The position numbers and the translations under genes are program-made. 64,000 bases of DNA, from the NCBI GenBank assembly GCA_036405415.1, contig DASWXP010000002.1, positions 427,678 through 491,677 of the forward strand, given 5' to 3'. The notes under the pieces were generated by a model. That model was not told where the DNA came from, searched no databases, and saw only the letters and a program-made list of their open reading frames with translations. Positions 5,716-32,100 of the stretch are shown here, piece after piece (position 1 is the stretch's first letter; each line of letters starts with the position of its first letter). The stretch is from Minisyncoccota bacterium (GTDB lineage: Bacteria; Patescibacteriota; Minisyncoccia; Phycocordibacterales; Phycocordibacteraceae).

Positions 5716-6927
5716 CTAGATCTTATCGGAGAGCGAGTAGATCGGCGTGATCATCGCCATCGCGAAGATGCCCACGGCGCCTCCGATGAAAAGCATGAGG
5801 AGCGGCTCAATGATGGTAGAGAGGTCCTTGGTGCGCTCCTCGACGTCGGTCTCGTAGTACTGCGCTACCTGCCCGAGCATGTCCGCTACCTTTCCGGTCT
5901 CCTCGCCCACGGCGATCATGTCGCCTACGAATACCGGGTAGAGCTTCGGATGATCGATGAACGACGCGGAAAGTGCCTCGCCCTTCCTGACGCGTTCTTC
6001 CGCTTCCCGGAGCACCTTCCCGAAGCTGTTGTCTCCCACCACTTCCCCTGAAATCTTGAGCGCGGAAAGCATCTCGACGCCGGAAGAAAGAAGCGACGAC
6101 AGGGAGCGTGCGGCACGTGCGCTCATGGTCTCGCGTACGAGTTCTCCGATAACCGGCATGCGGAGCGCGAGCATGAGGACGATCCGTGCGCCCGGCTTCG
6201 AGCGGACAAAGAAGAATATGCCGGCGAAGACGGCGATGAGGATTCCCATGGTAAGGAATGCGTTCGAGGCCATGAAATCAGACGTGTCGATGATGGCCTT
6301 CGTTGCTGCGGGAAGCTCTACCCCGAGCTCCTTGAACGTATTGGAAAGGGTCGGCACCACGTAGATGAGCATGAGCACGCCGATGATGACGATCGCGGTG
6401 AGGATGATCATCGGATAGATCATGGCGCCCTTCACCTTCTTCTGGAGGTTGAACGCCTTCTCCATCTGGCGCGCAACCACGGAAAGCGACTCGGCGAGCG
6501 TTCCTGATTCCTCGCCCGCTTTCGTCATGGCGATGAAGAGCTCCGAGAATACCTTCGGATGCTTCGCGAGCGCCTCATGGAACGAGGAGCCCTTCTTAAC
6601 CTCCTCGCTGAGCGCCGCAACGGTCTTCTTCAGGTATTTATTAGTTGCCTGGCGCTCGATAACAGAGAGCGCGCGCGTAAGCGGAAGACCCGCTGAAAGC
6701 ATCGCGGCGAGATTTTTCGTGAACGTTATCTTCTGGTCGGTCTTAATGCCCGAGCCGAAGGTTATCTGCGTCCATGCAGGACCGCTTCCGCCCCTCGCTT
6801 CTTCTACCGAGACAACTGTTGCGCCCTCCTTCTCCATCTCGCCGTACACCGCAAAGCGCGTCGGCGCTTCGATGACGCGATGCACTTCGCTTCCGTCACT
6901 GGTCTTCGCGGTTACGCGGAATTTCAT
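5716..6927 (-). CDS. pilC: type IV pilus assembly platform protein PilC (GspF family)
   Basis: Two T2SSF-domain repeats, three TM segments and the conserved IEPLLMLFIGGAVG C-terminal helix. Confidence 0.9.
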   Translation of the reverse strand: MKFRVTAKTSDGSEVHRVIEAPTRFAVYGEMEKEGATVVSVEEARGGSGPAWTQITFGSGIKTDQKITFTKNLAAMLSAGLPLTRALSVIERQATNKYLKKTVAALSEEVKKGSSFHEALAKHPKVFSELFIAMTKAGEESGTLAESLSVVARQMEKAFNLQKKVKGAMIYPMIILTAIVIIGVLMLIYVVPTLSNTFKELGVELPAATKAIIDTSDFMASNAFLTMGILIAVFAGIFFFVRSKPGARIVLMLALRMPVIGELVRETMSARAARSLSSLLSSGVEMLSALKISGEVVGDNSFGKVLREAEERVRKGEALSASFIDHPKLYPVFVGDMIAVGEETGKVADMLGQVAQYYETDVEERTKDLSTIIEPLLMLFIGGAVGIFAMAMITPIYSLSDKI

Positions 6928-7006
6928 ATCCGAATCGTAGCATGCAGATATGCGAACGGGCCGGGTTCCGTAGGAGGAACCCGGCCCGTGGCCAGACGAA
7001 GGCCGA

Positions 7007-7348
7007 TCAGTGACCGGAACGGGGCCTCGGCACCGTGGCCAGCAGGATGCCGGCCGAGACGCCGGCGATCAGCCCGAGCCAGCCGATGTCCTGGAGCAGT
7101 TCGAAGCCGCCCCAGCGGCACAGCAGCGCGATCAGCAGGCCGAGGCCGGCGATGACGAAGGCGATGTTCTCCGTCATCCACCAGTACAGCGCGGCCGCGA
7201 TGGCCATCGCGACCACGAAAGACCAGAGTCCTCCGACGCCCGTGTCGTTGTCCAGGGACACGAACGGGATCATGCCGGAGACCCAGGTGGCCCCAGCCGC
7301 GATGGCGACGGCAATCATGAGACCTGTGATGGTCTTTTTCATATTCAC
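7007..7348 (-). CDS. small four-TM membrane protein, hypothetical, in a compositionally foreign island (about 70-75% GC)
   Basis: Strong SD GGAGGAG 6 nt before the ATG. Codon third positions are dominated by G/C, unlike neighbouring genes. Four predicted hydrophobic helices. Downstream there is a perfect 12-bp hairpin GGGCCGGGTTCC..GGAACCCGGCCC. Confidence 0.5.
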   Translation of the reverse strand: MNMKKTITGLMIAVAIAAGATWVSGMIPFVSLDNDTGVGGLWSFVVAMAIAAALYWWMTENIAFVIAGLGLLIALLCRWGGFELLQDIGWLGLIAGVSAGILLATVPRPRSGH

Positions 7349-7402
7349 TCCTCCGAGAACACACTGTCGGAAATCCGGACAGAGAGGATGTGTTCCGCGT
7401 CC

Positions 7403-7431
7403 GTTATACTCCCCTACCCGTATAAAAACAA
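7403..7431 (-). promoter_or_regulatory. sigma70-like promoter for the 7007-7348 gene (TTGTTT-17-TATAAC on the minus strand)
   Basis: Read directly from the sequence in the 84-bp gap between the pilB stop and the small-gene start. The only support is hexamer similarity and 17-bp spacing. Confidence 0.3.
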
Positions 7432-7432
7432 T

Positions 7433-9229
7433 CTATTCAGAAACCGCACGGAGCACCTCCTCGATGGAGGTGATGCCGCGCGCGCTCTTGTAGATGCCGT
7501 CCTCAAGCATCGTGAGCATGCCCTCCTTGCGCGCCTGCGCCTCTATCGCGTCCGTTGTGCCGCTATGGAGGATGATGTCGCGGATCGCCGGCGACACCGA
7601 GAGCACCTCATGGATGCCGATGCGCCCTGAGTATCCGTCCTCGCACTGGGACGACGGCTTCGGACCATGGAACGGCACGCTCTCGATCTTCGTGCCCGCC
7701 TTCACGAGCTTCTCGTCCGTGAGCGCCTTCAATACCGCGTCGAACTTGTCGTCATGCGCTACCTTCGCGCGCTCTTCCGTATCGAGCGCGAACTGTTCCT
7801 TGTCGTCGCAGAGCCTGCGCACGAGACGCTGACCCACGATAACGCGGAGCGTGGAAACAAGGAGGAACGGCTCCACGCCCATATCGATGAGGCGCGGGAT
7901 GGCGCCGGCTGCGGAGTTGGTGTGGATGGTCGAGAGCACGAGGTGTCCCGTAAGCGCGGCGTTGATCGCGAGCGACGCGGTCTCGCCGTCGCGTATCTCT
8001 CCCACCATGATGATGTCCGGGTCCTGGCGCACGAGGGAACGGAGGCCGTTCGCGAACGTGAATCCGATCTCCGGCTTCACCTGCGTCTGGTTCACGCGCT
8101 TCATCTGGTACTCGATCGGGTCCTCGATCGTAGAGATGTTCACGTCCGGCGTATTGAGGATGTCGAGAATCGTATACAAGGTCGTCGTCTTTCCGGATCC
8201 GGTAGGACCAGAGATGAGGATGATGCCGGTGGTCTGCTTCGTCGCCTTATGAATGCGCTCCATGGTGTCGCCATGGAACCCGAGCACGTCGAGCGTGAAG
8301 CCTTCGCCCGTCTCGCGAAGGAGACGCATAACAATCTTCTCGCCGTAATAGGTCGGCAGCATCGACACGCGGAACGAGACCTTGTCGGTCTCGGTCTCCA
8401 TCTTGAAACGGCCGTCCTGCGGGAGACGCTTCTCGTCGAGCTTTAGGTTCGCGAGCACCTTGATGCGGGCCGTGATGCCGGCAGACGCGGTGCGCGGGAG
8501 CGTCATGGCGTCATGCAGCACACCGTCGATGCGATAGCGCACCAAGACTTCCTGCTCCATCGGCTCGATGTGGATGTCGGACGCCTTCTGGATGATGGCG
8601 TGACGCAGGAGCGTATCCACGATACGCACGATCGGCAGGTCCTCTGCCATCTTCTTGAGGTCCTCGCCCGACGCGTCGTCCCCCGCCCCTGCGTCCTTGA
8701 TGAGATTGATGCGGCCTGCCTCGGTCGAGATAAGGTCGCCGAACTCTTCCTTGAGCGACTTCTGGTACTGCAGCAGCACGTTCTTCAAAGACTCGTCGTC
8801 CGTTAGACGCGGAAGAATCTTGAGACCTGTCTTCTTACGCACCGAATCGATGGACGGGAGGTCTTCCGTATCAAGCATCGCTACCTCAAGCGAATCCCCT
8901 TCCTTCTTAAAGGCGATGATGGAGTGCGTGCGTGCAATCGGCTCTGGAATAAGTGACAGGACATTGAGATCAATCTTCTTGTCCTTCAAGTTCACGAACG
9001 GAATGCCGAGCACGTATGCCTTGATACGGCGGAGCGAGTCTGAAGAAAGAAGTCCCTGAGAGACGAGGATGTCGCCGATGGACTGTCCCCGGCGCTTTGC
9101 TTCCTCTTCCGCAGCGTCAACATCCTTCCTGGAGACGAGTCCGGAGTCGAGTATGAATTCCTTGAGTTCGCTTTCAGAGACCTGCATGCCGTTTAGTATT
9201 GAAAGTATAGCGCGCCACTGTTGAATCAC
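7433..9229 (-). CDS. pilB: type IV pilus assembly ATPase PilB (GspE family)
   Basis: Walker A GPTGSGKTTT, Asp box, Walker B DIIMVGEIRD and His box LVLSTIHTNSAAG, with a T2SSE_N-like N-terminal domain. The start is ambiguous: GTG at 9229 or ATG at 9187. Confidence 0.9.
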   Translation of the reverse strand: MIQQWRAILSILNGMQVSESELKEFILDSGLVSRKDVDAAEEEAKRRGQSIGDILVSQGLLSSDSLRRIKAYVLGIPFVNLKDKKIDLNVLSLIPEPIARTHSIIAFKKEGDSLEVAMLDTEDLPSIDSVRKKTGLKILPRLTDDESLKNVLLQYQKSLKEEFGDLISTEAGRINLIKDAGAGDDASGEDLKKMAEDLPIVRIVDTLLRHAIIQKASDIHIEPMEQEVLVRYRIDGVLHDAMTLPRTASAGITARIKVLANLKLDEKRLPQDGRFKMETETDKVSFRVSMLPTYYGEKIVMRLLRETGEGFTLDVLGFHGDTMERIHKATKQTTGIILISGPTGSGKTTTLYTILDILNTPDVNISTIEDPIEYQMKRVNQTQVKPEIGFTFANGLRSLVRQDPDIIMVGEIRDGETASLAINAALTGHLVLSTIHTNSAAGAIPRLIDMGVEPFLLVSTLRVIVGQRLVRRLCDDKEQFALDTEERAKVAHDDKFDAVLKALTDEKLVKAGTKIESVPFHGPKPSSQCEDGYSGRIGIHEVLSVSPAIRDIILHSGTTDAIEAQARKEGMLTMLEDGIYKSARGITSIEEVLRAVSE

Positions 9230-9255
9230 TGCGTTGTTGTATGCGAAGAGAGCGT

Positions 9256-9291
9256 GGAAAAGAAAACGCCCCCACGATTGCTCGTGGGGGC
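9256..9291 (-). terminator. intrinsic terminator: 10-bp GC stem (GCCCCCACGA/TCGTGGGGGC) plus a T-tract on the minus strand
   Basis: Perfect hairpin followed by GTTTTCTTTTCC on the minus strand. It lies directly after the 9319-9750 gene and before pilB. Confidence 0.6.
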
Positions 9292-9318
9292 ACTTGTTTG
9301 GGCGTCGTCGGTTGTCGG

Positions 9319-9750
9319 TCAGCCCCGATAGTGGGGCGAGCCGGCACCCGGGACGAAGCCGCCGCCGAACCGCTTCAGGTTGAAGCGATCGCCCGGATAG
9401 ACCGGTACCATCACCTGGCTGTGATCGGTGTCGACCGCGAGCGCCGTCTTCACGTCGATCCGTTCGGACCGCGGATTGCTCGGCGTGCCCAGGAAGATGG
9501 GCAGATCGAAGCGGTCGGCGGTCCGGATGGCCGGCTCGTAGCCGATGCGCTGCACCAGGTTGTCGCCGCGCTGGATGGTGAATTCCGGCCGGTTCTGGCC
9601 GGTGACCAGCCAGACGGCGCCGGCCAGCAGGGCGGCGACGCCCAGGCCGATCATGGCGCGACGACGGTTGTTCGGGGTGTTCATGCCGGCGAAGAAGTCG
9701 TTGCCGGAATCGCCGGCCGGGCGAGCAGAAGGAATGGCGGTGTCGGACAC
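9319..9750 (-). CDS. hypothetical membrane-anchored protein in a second high-GC island
   Basis: GTG start preceded by GGGAGA. One TM segment (MIGLGVAALLAGAVWLV), then a roughly 90-aa domain. About 68-70% GC with a G/C third-position bias. The antisense 176-aa ORF is Arg-rich and was rejected. Confidence 0.45.
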   Translation of the reverse strand: MSDTAIPSARPAGDSGNDFFAGMNTPNNRRRAMIGLGVAALLAGAVWLVTGQNRPEFTIQRGDNLVQRIGYEPAIRTADRFDLPIFLGTPSNPRSERIDVKTALAVDTDHSQVMVPVYPGDRFNLKRFGGGFVPGAGSPHYRG

Positions 9751-9884
9751 GTTGGGTCTCCCGATGTGTGACTCGAAGGAACAGACCTCCGAGCCTGGTT
9801 AATAGGCGAAGGCATTACTCGAAACTAAGTAAAACGATACACTTTTATACTTAAAATGTCAATACTCTGTGGACGAGACACGAA

Positions 9885-9912
9885 TTGACCTCATGCCTAT
9901 ATATGGTATGCT
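9885..9912 (+). promoter_or_regulatory. candidate promoter for nusA (TTGACC-16-TATGCT) in an AT-rich 240-bp spacer
   Basis: Hexamer match only. Confidence 0.3.
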
Positions 9913-10021
9913 TTCCTTATCTGGAATGTCCGCACCCGCGGGCATTCTCTATTTTAGAGAAACCCGGATGCGTGCGACCATACCCTTATATACGGTGCGA
10001 ACAATCACATAGAGAAGACTT

Positions 10022-11413
10022 ATGTTGGACCTCAAGACCATAAACCTAGTGCTCGGCGAGTTCGAGGAGCGCGGCATCACGAAAGAGACGATGATCGACG
10101 CTATCGAGCAGGCGATGGCAACGGCGTACAAGAAGGAATACGGAAAGCGCGGACAGGTAATCCGCGGGGCTCTTGATATGAACACGGGTACCGTGTCATT
10201 CGAGCAGGTGAAGACCGTCGTGGACGAGACCCTCGTGCGCTTCCCTGAGGAAGGCGAGGAAGTAACCGAGCTTCCGGCGCATCATCCGCACTTCGATCGC
10301 GAGGAGGAGGTCGCAGAAGGCGAGCTTCCGCGCTACGACGCGGAGAAGCACATGCTTCTTGAGGACGCGCAGCGCATCAAGCGCGGTGCCGAGCTCGGCG
10401 AGGAGATCATCTTCCCGCTCGAGCCGCAGGACGATTTCGGCCGCATCGCTGCACAGACCGCAAAGCAGGTGGTGATCCAGAAGATTCGCGAAGCGGAGAA
10501 GCTCTCTATCCTTGACGAGTTCGGCCACAAGAAGGGCGAGATCGTGACGGGTATCGTGCAGCGCGCAGAGCGCGGCGCTATCTTCGTCGACCTTGGTCGC
10601 GCGACCGGCGTGATCCCGTATGAGGAGCAGATTCCTGGCGAGCGCTACCGTCCAGGCGAGCGCATCAGCGCCTACCTCTACGCCGTAGACGAAGGGTTCC
10701 GTGGCGTATACCTCCGCCTCTCGCGCAGCCATCCACGCTTCCTCACCCGTCTCTTCGAGATGGAGGTGCCGGAGCTTGCTGCGGGCGCTATCGAGATCAA
10801 GGGTCTCGCGCGCGAGCCGGGTTCCCGCACCAAGATCGCGATTGCTTCGAACGATCCACACGTGGATCCGGTTGGCTCCCTCGTGGGCCAGCGTGGTGTC
10901 CGCGTCTCGACCGTCATGGCGGCGCTCGGCGGCGAGCGCATCGACATCATCGAGTGGAGCGAGGACATGGCGTCCTACATCAAGGAGTCGCTTTCCCCTG
11001 CTACCGTGCTTGAGGTTGAGCTCAACGAAGAGGAGCGCCGCGCGAAGGTAACGGTATCCGAGGACCAGCAGTCGCTTGCGATTGGCCGCGGTGGCCAGAA
11101 CGTGCGCCTTGCCGCGAAGCTCACCGGCTGGAACATCGACATCATGTCAGTTGGCGGCGAGAGCGTCGCTGATGCGGACGGACAGCAGGAGGACGCAGTA
11201 TCCGCTGCTACCGACGAGTCCGTAGCCGAGGTTGAGAACGCCGAGGACATGGATCCGGCAGTTGCAGCCGGCATCGATCCGACAGAGACCGAGTCCGTGG
11301 TTACCGAGGACGATTCCGAAGACAACACGCTTACGGTTGAGGACGAGACGTCCACCACCGACGAAGGCAACGAATCGATCGCGGACGCTGAGGAGTCTCG
11401 CGACCAGGCATAA
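10022..11413 (+). CDS. nusA: transcription termination/antitermination factor NusA with an acidic C-terminal extension
   Basis: NusA N-terminal domain plus S1 plus two KH domains (GLAIGRGGQNVRLAAKLTGW), followed by a D/E-rich tail. Confidence 0.9.
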   Translation: MLDLKTINLVLGEFEERGITKETMIDAIEQAMATAYKKEYGKRGQVIRGALDMNTGTVSFEQVKTVVDETLVRFPEEGEEVTELPAHHPHFDREEEVAEGELPRYDAEKHMLLEDAQRIKRGAELGEEIIFPLEPQDDFGRIAAQTAKQVVIQKIREAEKLSILDEFGHKKGEIVTGIVQRAERGAIFVDLGRATGVIPYEEQIPGERYRPGERISAYLYAVDEGFRGVYLRLSRSHPRFLTRLFEMEVPELAAGAIEIKGLAREPGSRTKIAIASNDPHVDPVGSLVGQRGVRVSTVMAALGGERIDIIEWSEDMASYIKESLSPATVLEVELNEEERRAKVTVSEDQQSLAIGRGGQNVRLAAKLTGWNIDIMSVGGESVADADGQQEDAVSAATDESVAEVENAEDMDPAVAAGIDPTETESVVTEDDSEDNTLTVEDETSTTDEGNESIADAEESRDQA

Positions 11414-12066: not shown

Positions 12067-12366
12067 ATGGAGAACGTACCAGGAGAGAACATGCAGCAGG
12101 ACACGGCCGCTCCGGCGCCTGCTCCTGCCCCGGTAGCCGAAGAGGCAAAGAAGGGCGCCGCATACGGCTCCATCATCGGCATCGTGATCATCGTCGCGGT
12201 TCTTGTAGCCGGCGCGTTCTACGTCTGGGGCGAGCGCCTCAGCGAGCAGCAGCCGCAGGTCCCGGAGAACGGCGTCCGTGGCGAGATGCTTCCTGACGGG
12301 TCCTACCCTTCTGTCGAAGGTTCTCTTGACGTAGAGTCCGGCGAGAACGGCCCGCAGCCGCGCTAA
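12067..12366 (+). CDS. small single-TM hypothetical protein
   Basis: Pro/Ala-rich N-terminus, one hydrophobic helix IIGIVIIVAVLVAGAFYVW, and a terminator hairpin downstream at about 12380-12408. Confidence 0.4.
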   Translation: MENVPGENMQQDTAAPAPAPAPVAEEAKKGAAYGSIIGIVIIVAVLVAGAFYVWGERLSEQQPQVPENGVRGEMLPDGSYPSVEGSLDVESGENGPQPR

Positions 12367-24312: not shown

Positions 24313-25884
24313 ATGGCGACCACCGACCAGCCTGTACCGACACCGGAGCCGAGCGCCCCTGTCGACCGCTCCCAGTTCATCCGCACCATGGCAAAGGACA
24401 TGGCGGCGGCTGGCGGCGCGAACGCAAATGTGCGTCCGCTTCCTGCTCCCGCACCAAAGAGGGAAGAGGTCCCTGTCGCGGGCGTAACGCTTCCGAAGAC
24501 CGAAGAGCCGTTCTTCGAGCGCCCGCAGTCCCGCGCTGAGCGCGAAGCAGACATACCAGTACCGCTTCCGTCGATGCAGGAAGCCGGGGCGATCGTTGCG
24601 CCGAAAGAAGATCGAGAAGCGGTGCTCGCGCGCCTTCGCGAGAAGGTGAGCCAGAGCGCGAACATGTCTATCCAGCAGTCTCCGGCGCCTGCAGTCCCTG
24701 CGCCCGCTGCTCCTGCAGCAGAGAAGTCATGGCCCGATATCCCTGCACCGCCAGCCAGCTTCGCTGCTCCTGCGGCCGCACCTGAACCTGTTCCAGCCGC
24801 TCCTGCTCAGCCTGAGTGGCAGAACGTCCCGAATCCTGCTCCCGCGTTCACGCCAATGGCTGAGCCACAGCCTGCGCGCATCCCGCCGCTTGAGCGCGCT
24901 CCGGGGAGGGATACGTATCGCGAGCCCGTCGAAGAGGCGCTGCCAGCGCGCCCGAACGCTGCGCCTGCACCCGACCGGATGCACACATACTCCTCAGATT
25001 TCGCTAAGCGCATCGATACCCAGGGCGCGTCCACGTTCTCCGTGCTCGCTGCCGAGCAGGACTCGGCAACGCCGCGCGTAGCGGCACCGGTAAAGAAGCA
25101 AGGCAGCGGGAAGGCGATGCTTGCCATCGGAAGCGGCGTACTCCTCATAGCGCTTGCGGTTGGCGGCGTGTTCTTGACCTACCAGTTCGTCATGACCATG
25201 CGCGACACGCCTATCGCAGCGCTCACCGTACCGTCCATCGTGGTCGCTGACGAATACGAGGAGCTCTCCGGCACTGGAGACGAGCTCATGCGCGCGCTCG
25301 CGACGAGTGCAGGCGGGGCAGTAGTCCCCGGGAACGTGATTGTCACCTACATCCTTGAGGACATGACCGAAGAGGGCGGCGGCATCGTGAAGAGCCCTGC
25401 CGGCGGGGCAGCGTTCCTTCGCGCGCTCCAGGTACCGGCTCCGGATATCCTCCTTCGCAACATCGCAAAGGAGAGCGCTGCGGGCGTCGTGAACACTGGC
25501 AGCGAATCAAGCGTATTCTTCGCGCTTCGCGTTGACTCGTATGAGCGCACCTACGCAGGCATGCTTACCTGGGAGCCGCTCATGCTGCGAGACCTTTCCA
25601 TACTCTATCCGCTCTACCCGACAGAGGCGGCTCCTGAGCCTGTAGCCACAACCACGGCCACGTCGACCGCCGCGACCACGACGCCCGTAGCGCTCGATCC
25701 GGTTCCCGCAAGCGCGCTTTCCCGGTTCTCGGACGCGGTTGTCGCGAACCATGACGTCCGCGTATTGCGCGATACTGCGGGCCGCTCACTTCTTTTGTAC
25801 GGCTACGCCGACAAGCGCACGCTCATAATCGCCCGCGACGAGGCGGCGTTTGAGGCGCTGCTTCCGCGACTTAAGGCTGAGTAG
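24313..25884 (+). CDS. Pro/Ala-rich single-TM hypothetical protein
   Basis: Low-complexity N-terminal half, one TM helix (AMLAIGSGVLLIALAVGGVFL) and a C-terminal globular region. Confidence 0.5.
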   Translation: MATTDQPVPTPEPSAPVDRSQFIRTMAKDMAAAGGANANVRPLPAPAPKREEVPVAGVTLPKTEEPFFERPQSRAEREADIPVPLPSMQEAGAIVAPKEDREAVLARLREKVSQSANMSIQQSPAPAVPAPAAPAAEKSWPDIPAPPASFAAPAAAPEPVPAAPAQPEWQNVPNPAPAFTPMAEPQPARIPPLERAPGRDTYREPVEEALPARPNAAPAPDRMHTYSSDFAKRIDTQGASTFSVLAAEQDSATPRVAAPVKKQGSGKAMLAIGSGVLLIALAVGGVFLTYQFVMTMRDTPIAALTVPSIVVADEYEELSGTGDELMRALATSAGGAVVPGNVIVTYILEDMTEEGGGIVKSPAGGAAFLRALQVPAPDILLRNIAKESAAGVVNTGSESSVFFALRVDSYERTYAGMLTWEPLMLRDLSILYPLYPTEAAPEPVATTTATSTAATTTPVALDPVPASALSRFSDAVVANHDVRVLRDTAGRSLLLYGYADKRTLIIARDEAAFEALLPRLKAE

Positions 25885-31095: not shown

Positions 31096-32100
31096 ATGGC
31101 TCATTCTGCACGCACTCTTCGCATCATCGGCGCATCGCTGCTCGCACTCCTCATGATAGGAGGCTCGTATATGTTCTCGGGTCCTACGCCCTGGGGCAGG
31201 GTAGCCGAGGCAGAGTCGGCAGAAGAGCTCCTCAAGGCATACGCAGCCAAGGACACCGACACGGACGGGCTCCCGGACTGGCAGGAGTCGCTCTACGGCA
31301 CTGACCCTAATAACCCGGAGTCCTTCCAGGCAGGGATCAAGGATGGGGAGGCAGTGGCGCAAGGGCTCGTGCAGCCGAGGGTAGCGGTGCGTCCCGAGGA
31401 TGAGCCTATCGACCCGAGCACGATTCCGGGAACCGTCGCAGCGCCGTCCTCGGTAACCGACCGCTTCTCGCAGACGCTTCTCAAGCAGTACCTGCTCAGC
31501 CGCGGCGAGAACCCGCCGACCCCCGCCGAGATAACGGCGTTCGTCACGGACGCTCTCGCAGACCTCTCGCTGAGCTCGCAGCACCCTGACGCCTTCTCGC
31601 TTGCGGACGTACGCGCTTCCTCCGAGACCGGCACGGACGGCCTCGCCCTGTACGCCGCTCGCGCAGAAGAGGCGCTCGCTTCGCAGAATATTCGCCCTGC
31701 GAAGAATGAGCTCTTCTACTTCTCTGATGCCGTAAAAGGCAACTCGAGCGCGCTCGGAAAGATCAGGCAGATCAGCGACGCGTACGAGGCGTCGAGCCGC
31801 GCATTCATGCAGGTGCCGGTACCGGAGGAAGCGCGCAGGGCACATCTTTCGGTCGCGAACGCGCTGAACGGCATGGCTGCCATCACGGAAGATCTTGCGT
31901 CCCTTGAGACTGATCCGCTTCGTGCGCTCGTTGGCCTTGCAGCATACGACAAGCAGTCCGCAGAGCTTATCCGCGCGCTCGCTTCCATGCATAACGTGCT
32001 TTCGGCGCGCTCGGTGTCCATACCAGCAGGGCAATCCGGTGCGGAATTCCTGTTCCTCGCCGAAGAGTCAGCACGGAGCGCGGCAGCCGGCCAGCAATAA
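31096..32100 (+). CDS. membrane-anchored hypothetical protein (first gene of the plus-strand T4SS-like block)
   Basis: N-terminal TM anchor, then an acidic/Ala-rich extracytoplasmic region. The alternative start is 31069. Confidence 0.45.
   Translation: MAHSARTLRIIGASLLALLMIGGSYMFSGPTPWGRVAEAESAEELLKAYAAKDTDTDGLPDWQESLYGTDPNNPESFQAGIKDGEAVAQGLVQPRVAVRPEDEPIDPSTIPGTVAAPSSVTDRFSQTLLKQYLLSRGENPPTPAEITAFVTDALADLSLSSQHPDAFSLADVRASSETGTDGLALYAARAEEALASQNIRPAKNELFYFSDAVKGNSSALGKIRQISDAYEASSRAFMQVPVPEEARRAHLSVANALNGMAAITEDLASLETDPLRALVGLAAYDKQSAELIRALASMHNVLSARSVSIPAGQSGAEFLFLAEESARSAAAGQQ

Follow-up and report, generated by a model that had tools for sequence, protein, structure and literature searches.

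A GC-rich gene for a predicted membrane protein of an undescribed family beside pilB in a Minisyncoccota bacterium

Bacteria of the candidate phyla radiation (CPR), or Patescibacteria, rely on type IV pili for host attachment and probably for DNA uptake. To our knowledge, the envelope proteins around the CPR pilus machine are almost all unannotated. The closest described systems are the LysM proteins (PF01476), which include membrane-anchored or pilus-associated members such as TsaP and FimV, the morons of bacteriophages, and the hypervariable surface-protein slots of pilin and O-antigen loci. A moron is a gene of deviant base composition that lies singly inside a lambdoid prophage and is driven and ended by a promoter and terminator of its own; morons often block type IV pili or alter the cell surface in superinfection exclusion. 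Here we describe ORF143, an open reading frame (ORF) of 143 amino acids next to the pilus ATPase gene pilB of a Minisyncoccota bacterium. It lies on the minus strand (9319..9750) of a 64,000-nt stretch of contig DASWXP010000002.1 (positions 427,678 to 491,677), which we call the window and whose numbering is used throughout.

Variable gene slots are already known, and so are small envelope proteins that have a membrane anchor and may resemble LysM. ORF143 represents an undescribed domain family that comes in two forms, has a confident predicted fold and a preferred address beside pilB, and diverges very fast, and the codon signature of the family matches no sampled host. We give an even chance to the reading that ORF143 is a replaceable, fast-evolving cassette for a glycan-binding envelope protein, located by the pilus machine and refilled by homologous recombination.

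ORF143 and the slot between nusA and pilB

ORF143 is a genuine gene. HMMER, run exhaustively over 1.84 billion representatives, recovered 34 relatives (E-values 4e-16 to 8e-4), and their alignment contains conserved columns. The AlphaFold2 (AF2) model improves greatly when the family alignment is supplied: its predicted local distance difference test (pLDDT) score is 45 without it and 84 with it, with values of 90-96 over residues 60-140. A word-indexed homology search with ORF143 alone returned only the protein itself, and one with the family alignment at least six proteins. The identical 143-residue protein (P0001) is called at NCBI for the same metagenome-assembled genome, assigned to Candidatus Paceibacterota, on a 622-kb contig, and labelled hypothetical protein. 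The GC content at the first, second and third codon positions (GC1, GC2 and GC3) is 0.67, 0.51 and 0.88, which is a coding pattern. On the opposite strand is a 176-residue ORF with a GC1 of 0.83 and a GC3 of 0.63. Since codon position 1 of this antisense frame corresponds to position 3 of the sense frame, the antisense ORF is a by-product of A-poor third positions. The positional pattern rules it out as a true gene and upholds an earlier first-pass annotation of the window, which had called it typical of GC-rich coding DNA.

The expression signals of ORF143 are compact. Its GTG start (9750-9748, minus strand) stands 6 nt after the Shine-Dalgarno sequence GGGAGA (9757..9762), as read from the sequence. 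A promoter-like site further upstream (9834..9862, minus strand; TTGACA, 17 nt, TATCGT) is proposed from its match to the consensus, and relatives with a gene in the slot between nusA and pilB also have an ATTGACA box, oriented likewise. Downstream, folding predicts an intrinsic terminator (9255..9295, minus strand) with a 14-pair stem, the loop GCAA and a TTTTCTTTT tail. Its hairpin (9295-9264) has a perfect 10-bp GC core, GCCCCCACGA/TCGTGGGGGC, and a folding energy of -23 kcal/mol, and lies 27 nt past the stop codon; the GC-rich stem, the directly following U-tract and the position after the stop are those of a Rho-independent terminator. The reading frame, start codon, Shine-Dalgarno sequence, single transmembrane helix and hairpin with T-tract named in the first-pass annotation are all present. 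Together these signals mark ORF143 as a predicted monocistronic and self-contained cassette with its own promoter, Shine-Dalgarno sequence, ORF and strong terminator.

The cassette is sharply delimited. DNA homology between the window and six related genomes stops at about 9884-9896 and restarts at 9213-9215 (at 9270 in the locus labelled L049), and inside these limits alignment to relatives is confined to patches of 69-117 bp in the domain core. Because its limits are so sharp, the segment 9215..9883 (minus strand) behaves as a bounded, variable cassette. The surrounding gene order is conserved. A PilB search of GTDB species genomes yielded 80 related loci, and the order ppa-nusA, then pilB-pilC-orf494, is kept across them, with nusA divergently upstream of pilB in 70. 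The distance between nusA and pilB can be as short as 117 bp or as long as 8.7 kb; gene-free gaps of about 150-300 bp are common.

Genes of the ORF143 family occur in this gap, in the orientation of pilB, in at least six other Paceibacterota genomes, as the synteny comparison proposed by the first-pass annotation brought out. These genomes include L098, with NusA and PilB 89% and 90% identical to those of the window and a family gene 47% identical to ORF143, and L101, with corresponding values of 92% (partial NusA), 86% and 41%. In L049 (PilB 88%) the family gene is recognized at E 3e-19, in L093 (PilB 79%) it is 43% identical to ORF143, and in L013 (PilB 80%) it matches the family profile at E 3e-5. 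L106 (PilB 79%) has a longer form of the gene at the same site, and in L088 the family gene adjoins nusA, after a TetR gene. Judged by these shared positions, the ORF143-family genes are long-standing residents of the pilB locus in this clade.

The protein has diverged far more than its neighbours. Pairwise identity is 32-48% throughout for ORF143 orthologues and 82-93% for PilB, measured over its first 360 residues; the two sets of values are weakly correlated (r=0.56). Some members are found elsewhere. The member in L097 lies beside lysS-greA-PBP2-mreC, and the long forms in L090 and L095 have no pilus ATPase nearby. In L099 (917-9955) and L100 (JGI 3300056750 / 3300056753), the member P0014 is followed directly by a large serine recombinase and lies 2.5 kb from pilM...pilB-pilT. 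The block that it ends contains two N6/N4 DNA methyltransferases, one of them fused to ParB, and adjoins pilM...pilB-response regulator-pilT; it looks like an integrative element carrying the ORF143 family. A search with the long-form subset gave four metagenome loci and no viral contigs.

Other relatives carry different cargo in the nusA-pilB gap. Judged by eye from the ORF sequences, with Pfam confirming only the TetR_N domain of L088, this cargo includes apparent TetR-type regulators (L008, L049, L088), HIT-like proteins with an HxHxH motif (L009, L037, L029, L016), Gly/Asp-rich repeat proteins (L014, L024) and a 371-residue protein with a LysM-like motif and no Pfam match (L012). GC is elevated in some of this cargo too, at 0.59 vs 0.47 in L012 and 0.65 vs 0.57 in L014.

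Topology and predicted fold of the protein family

ORF143 is predicted to be bitopic, with a cytoplasmic N-terminal tail, a transmembrane helix and an extracytoplasmic domain. The helix spans residues ~28-52 of the AF2 model (9595..9669, minus strand) and is preceded by NNRRR, which by the positive-inside rule points to an N-in/C-out topology. The conserved C-terminal domain of about 85 residues (residues ~55-135; 9346..9588, minus strand) contains the family consensus motifs FTIxxGEGL, AIxLAExFxLPxY and TDxxQVxVxVYxGDxFDL, as seen in the alignment of family members. The short form of the family, to which ORF143 belongs, has 122-155 residues and consists of the N-terminal tail, the helix and this domain. 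The long form, of 240-290 residues, is found in L106 (10001-10825), L102, L090 and L095; it has a signal-like, lipoprotein-like or transmembrane N-terminus and an extra domain of about 130 residues ahead of the same C-terminal domain. The extra domain is itself conserved, with the motifs VDVVNG..PVS, WPHL...VVYFLR, GSL..V.AE and QCLNG, and has no Pfam match.

In the AF2 model, the first half of the outer domain has the order beta(57-58)-alpha(65-69)-alpha(71-80)-beta(85-88). The second half is rich in beta structure, with strands at 96-98, 112-114, 122-124 and 131-133 and a helix at 100-105. About 15 of the 33 top structure matches are Csd3, NMB0315, CEBiP, SleL, AtlA, Ecp6, MltD, intimin and the LysM domain of TsaP in a model of the type IVa pilus (T4aP) machine. 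Foldseek with the ORF143 model returned nothing at E <= 0.001 in PDB or BFVD, and a search of PDB sequences with the family profile gave no match. We also aligned the family domain with hhalign against seven LysM sequences, each recognized as such by Pfam (E 1e-13 to 1e-20). The result was not significant (probability 2.8% over 11 columns), and the sole stretch paired was FTIQRGDNLVQ with YRVRKGDSLSS. ORF143 has no Pfam match at E <= 1, the LysM profile (PF01476) included.

We conclude from the model that the core of the domain is probably LysM-like in fold, with a beta-alpha-alpha-beta first half, and that by sequence it is not a LysM member. The LysM-like identity suggested in the first-pass annotation thus has weak structural support and no counterpart in the Pfam or hhalign comparisons. 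Its other candidates fell away: CpaB/SAF, PilN/PilO and Tad/Flp proteins gave no profile match at E <= 1 and are absent from the fold neighbours, and the same holds for TadG. Scans of ORF143, ORF113 (a second small gene, introduced below) and the family members against Pfam, NCBIfam, PHROGs and PADLOC gave no meaningful match, and literature searches found no paper on the ORF143 family or locus. The domain family is undescribed, with no Pfam, NCBIfam or PHROGs model. That the domain binds an envelope glycan in the manner of LysM is a proposal drawn from the modelled fold, to which we assign somewhat less than an even chance.

Codon usage and competing explanations for the cassette

ORF143 is the GC-richest stretch of the window. 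The GC content is 0.664 over 9240-9780, 0.685 in the ORF and 0.589 in the whole 64 kb, and all five 432-nt segments with GC of at least 0.685 (10-nt steps) fall at ORF143. The first-pass annotation had described a high-GC island here. The island is real, but it rises only 10 points over a background of about 59%, and there is no drastic switch in composition. The only other 432-nt stretches reaching 67% GC are at 24313-25884 (plus strand) and near 31240; the first is a 523-residue gene (GC 0.649, GC2 0.54) whose GC derives from amino-acid composition and not from codon choice. Between about 18000 and 24000 GC is lower, at 0.50-0.55, and gene GC3 is 0.58-0.69, vs about 0.72 elsewhere.

A second gene, ORF113 (7007..7348, minus strand), lies between pilB and pilC and encodes a small polytopic membrane protein. 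No other of the 59 called genes reaches these two in GC (0.688 for ORF143 and 0.661 for ORF113) or in GC3 (0.880 and 0.893, followed by 0.820 for the next gene). The GC3 expected from the protein sequence and host codon usage is 0.73 +/- 0.04, which ORF143 exceeds by 4.1 and ORF113 by 3.7 standard deviations. About 40% of the excess GC of the two genes comes from amino-acid composition and about 60% from synonymous choice. Two single-gene, compositionally deviant cassettes do bracket pilB, as first noted.

Both genes use a codon dialect of their own. For Leu, the host prefers CTC (0.53) to CTG (0.12), and CTG makes up 8/9 codons in ORF143 and 10/15 in ORF113. For Ala, the host uses GCG (0.46) over GCC (0.19), and GCC accounts for 11/14 and 10/16 codons, respectively. 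GGC, at 0.46 of host Gly codons, reaches 16/17 in ORF143 and 9/15 in ORF113, and CGG, at 0.10 of host Arg codons, is used 6/14 times in ORF143 and 0/3 times in ORF113. Set against a host ratio of 0.19, Leu CTG stands at 8/9 in ORF143 and 10/15 in ORF113; set against a host ratio of 0.30, Ala GCC stands at 11/13 and 10/15. Binomial P values are 1e-5 to 4e-3. The codons of each cassette gene are 17-19 nats likelier under the usage of the other than under that of the host, and for the remaining 57/59 genes codon likelihood favours host usage. The two genes therefore share one bias, as a common source predicts. Among the codon changes that leave GC unaltered, Ala shifts from G to C but Leu from C to G, and neither GC pressure nor biased gene conversion could produce such opposed shifts alone.

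The dialect is partly carried by the orthologues. Their pooled CTG:CTC ratio is 36:36, compared with 269:780 in their hosts (P=3e-5), and their GCC:GCG ratio is 49:40, compared with 376:637 (P=1e-3); the window copy is the most extreme in the family. Paceibacterota relatives with the highest GC keep the host dialect, with CTG/(CTG+CTC) of about 0.2 and GCC/(GCC+GCG) of about 0.3. Family members are GC spikes in all genomes examined except L095 (0.472 in the gene vs 0.49 in the rest of the locus). The corresponding values are 0.655 vs 0.495 in L098, 0.66 vs 0.53 in L101, 0.675 vs 0.573 in L088, 0.584 vs 0.51 in L093, 0.579 vs 0.463 in L097, 0.59 vs 0.466 in L099, 0.579 vs 0.503 in L106, 0.668 vs 0.60 in L102 and 0.451 vs 0.388 in L090. 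A gene-specific codon dialect that persists across syntenic orthologues is an unusual element. Three simple causes were rejected: high expression, given that the likely highly expressed HU, ClpP and Ppa genes lack the dialect; the codon context of membrane proteins, given that PilC lacks it; and donation from high-GC Paceibacterota relatives, which use the host dialect.

The slot that holds ORF113 varies as well. The gap between pilB and pilC is 1-30 bp in most genomes and about 400-1060 bp in a subset of nearer relatives (PilB 77-90%). Two metagenome contigs (86-88% DNA identity) are collinear with the window over pilB-ORF113-pilC, and their ORF113 products are 72-75% identical to that of the window. 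In other close relatives the slot encodes polytopic proteins of 109-133 residues that cannot be aligned to ORF113 and are GC-elevated, such as that of L048 (GC 0.64 and GC3 0.89 in a 0.51 locus). L093 has a NUDIX hydrolase gene there (10401-10823), so the contents of this slot change between genomes too. Just past the end of ORF113, before pilC, is a perfect 14-bp inverted repeat with a 6-nt loop (6956..6989), with no T-tract after it.

In the reading we favour, ORF143 sits in a variable slot between the nusA promoter and leader on one side and the pilB promoter on the other. Its domain would bind a peptidoglycan-like envelope glycan on the outside of the membrane, beside the type IV pilus machinery, and the protein would be a dispensable, surface-exposed and fast-diverging accessory and not a core pilus part. 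Homologous recombination in the conserved sequences on either side would refill or exchange the contents of the slot. Such refilling is proposed to account for the low identity of orthologues relative to PilB, for the alternate or absent cargo, and for the GC-rich dialect of the cassette. Taken singly, the parts of this reading are more tentative: it is possible, though we would not expect it, that ORF143 acts with or around the pilus machine, and we lean somewhat against the view that recombination through the flanks refills the slot and thereby keeps its composition separate. We think it unlikely, if worth stating, that the family is a CPR-specific surface family in a dedicated exchange slot, continually replaced by transformation and homologous recombination across ultra-conserved regulatory flanks. 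It would thereby keep its own dialect and GC content in many hosts and determine host attachment or phage evasion at the population level, and its composition would report a separate evolutionary history.

Several observations weigh against a replaceable pilus-side cassette. Its link to the pilus is one of adjacency, seen in seven genomes, and a strong terminator separates ORF143 from pilB, which has its own promoter. Many relatives with the same pilus genes lack an ORF143-family gene, and four family members (L090, L095, L097 and L099) lie away from the nusA-pilB site. No recombination event was directly observed. There is no integrase in the window and, within 6800-10100, there are no flanking direct repeats and no att-like flanking repeats of note. 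No recombinase is called at the nusA-pilB site of annotated relatives, and the neighbours in the window are pilus and housekeeping genes; a serine recombinase stands beside a family member in L099/L100 only. A scan of IMG/VR viral contigs with two peptide patterns did not find the family. The segment 6800-10100 also has no template-like repeat copy of a diversity-generating retroelement; a reverse transcriptase was not searched for in the rest of the window. Finally, exchange confined to Paceibacterota cannot create a dialect that the sampled Paceibacterota genomes lack.

A rather unlikely but coherent alternative is that ORF143 belongs to the pilus locus as an accessory gene passed on by vertical descent, never exchanged, and that its GC is intrinsic and due to an Ala/Gly/Pro/Arg-rich protein, to selection on codons or mRNA, or to GC-biased gene conversion. 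Synteny in many genomes fits vertical descent, as does the identity to ORF143, which peaks in L098, among the closest to the window by PilB and NusA, and follows PilB with the correlation given above. The share of the GC excess that stems from amino-acid composition fits as well, and the GC spike loosely follows host GC. Against it, neither GC pressure nor gene conversion can yield the two opposed swaps (GCG to GCC and CTC to CTG), and HU, ClpP and Ppa do not share the dialect. At 32-48% identity, moreover, synonymous sites should long have equilibrated to the host, and presence is patchy, with other cargo in the same slot. We know of no citable precedent for intrinsic selection causing such a codon dialect. 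If selection on the gene itself is nevertheless responsible, an unusual gene-specific dialect has been preserved across species. If cassette exchange is correct, the locus is a concrete case of gene flow aimed at the pilus locus in uncultured organisms.

A recent private transfer of both genes from one high-GC donor outside the CPR, of proteobacterial or actinobacterial codon type and unrelated to pilus biology, is improbable. It would explain the shared CTG/GCC/GGC/GTC(/CGG) dialect, which the host and its high-GC relatives lack, and why the window copy is the most extreme of its family. However, ORF143 and ORF113 both have positional orthologues in related genomes, at the same site in at least six other genomes for ORF143 and in the two collinear contigs for ORF113. 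All family members with an examined context or a name have a CPR-type context or a Patescibacteria, Parcubacteria or Paceibacterota label, and none was found in a recognizably non-CPR genome. The first-pass proposal of foreign cassettes from one source therefore survives in the shared bias and fails in their origin, since the cassettes are long resident in the clade and neither a private import nor an artefact. Unrelated bias and conserved location had been named there together as signs against it; the first is false here and the second true.

Equally poor are the chances of a moron-like origin, in which a phage or integrative element dropped a self-contained gene. ORF143 has a moron-like architecture and deviant composition, and the L099/L100 member, which ends the methyltransferase block before the serine recombinase near pilM...pilB-pilT, is still a GC spike inside that block. 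But no phage or integrase genes lie near ORF143 or at other nusA-pilB sites, 0/31 family members have a meaningful match in PHROGs, there are no PADLOC or BFVD matches, the two peptide patterns confirmed no relative among the IMG/VR contigs, and flanking repeats are lacking.

Hardly credible at all is an assembly chimera or contamination, raised by the first-pass annotation, in which a fragment of a high-GC organism was mis-joined beside pilB: the composition jump alone speaks for it, whereas five Logan assemblies from five separate runs (SRR11449177, 180, 183, 184 and 188) reproduce 8429-10389 or sub-ranges at 100% identity and cross both junctions, spanning nusA, spacer, ORF143, terminator and pilB, at least six further genomes, sequenced in unrelated projects, have homologous genes at the same junction, and the cassette shares its host-type promoter and terminator context with relatives.

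Flanking elements and comparison with known systems

The minus strand of the window reads PGK-TIM-(481 aa)-pilin-like-(494-aa pilin-like/CarboxypepD_reg)-pilC-ORF113-pilB-ORF143, and the divergent plus strand reads nusA-ppa-(99 aa)-clpP-RNase Y-HU. Profile matches identify pilB (7433..9187, minus strand) as a T2SSE and MshEN ATPase gene, pilC (5716..6927, minus strand) as encoding the T2SSF platform protein, and nusA (10022..11413, plus strand), which is divergent from the cassette. Relatives align to the pilB ORF only from residue 13-15, so the start is probably ATG 9187 and not GTG 9229. A conserved -10-like TATACT (9204..9209, minus strand) lies 16 nt upstream of this ATG, and the box recurs about 16-25 nt ahead of the pilB ATG in 16/17 aligned genomes, with L034 having GTATACT in a shifted register. 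With the conserved GCGCTATACTTT box only 16 nt before ATG 9187, the pilB leader is probably very short. In relatives with a gene upstream of pilB, a terminator occupies the same position with a different stem and a shared TTCTTTTCC(A/C)CG tail, and the stems covary in the alignment. With its own promoter and an upstream terminator, pilB would be insulated from whatever fills the slot.

On the other side of the cassette, the nusA promoter and leader (9885..9958, plus strand) comprise TTGACC, 16 nt and TG-n-TATGCT, followed by a hairpin and a T-rich run. The promoter within the spacer reads TTGACC-16-TGGTATGCT, and the almost invariant hairpin (9923-9948), which comes within ~10-45 nt after it, reads ATGTCCGC-ACCC-GCGGGCAT and is followed by the T-rich TTTCTTTTTA. 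A 51-nt core of the leader (9895-9945) is 86-92% identical in nine loci and partially conserved in seven more, and in L022 a G-U wobble is shifted within the stem. The hairpin looks like a terminator or attenuator, possibly for autoregulation by NusA. Rfam on 9150-10150 gave only sub-threshold chance matches, and none for the leader. Directly before the nusA ATG (~9995-10021, plus strand), most relatives conserve (G)CGxACAAyTAAATAxxGxA, which reads GCGAACAATCACATAGAGAAGACTTATG in the window; this block may be an unusual translation-initiation region. The spacer (9780-10020) measures 43.6% GC and not the roughly 35% first estimated. Its abrupt change in composition arises because it is the intergenic promoter region of nusA, and in relatives, too, short nusA-pilB gaps have a GC content 5-15 points lower than that of their genomes. 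Mapping these conserved promoter and leader elements of nusA and pilB should be useful for annotating such genomes. Further downstream, a 99-residue protein with a single transmembrane helix is encoded between ppa and clpP (12067-12366, plus strand; 65.6% GC, GC3 0.755), with GC derived mostly from an Ala/Pro/Gly-rich sequence; L088, L093 and L106 have an unannotated gene of 68-76 residues in this place.

Compared with LysM proteins, the ORF143 domain is likewise small and extracytoplasmic, has the beta-alpha-alpha-beta core as its best structural match, and has an N-terminal strand-turn motif, FTIxxGDxL, that resembles YxVxxGDTL. As with LysM proteins of the TsaP/FimV type, the gene adjoins type IV pilus genes. 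In contrast, the ORF143 domain is about twice as long, and its extra, beta-rich C-terminal half holds the most conserved motif of the family, TDxxQVxVxVYxGDxFDL. ORF143 is also one bitopic protein, in a CPR cell that is monoderm-like and has no secretin.

Like a moron, ORF143 is an autonomous promoter-ORF-terminator unit for a small membrane protein, with a composition unlike both flanks. Unlike a moron, it lies outside any prophage, between housekeeping nusA and pilB, at a position conserved across species. It differs from hypervariable surface-protein slots in being one small gene whose compositional signature persists across species and whose allele exchange we infer. In common with those slots, it is a divergent insert between conserved flanks, the occupants of its site alternate among genomes, and its homologues diverge very fast.

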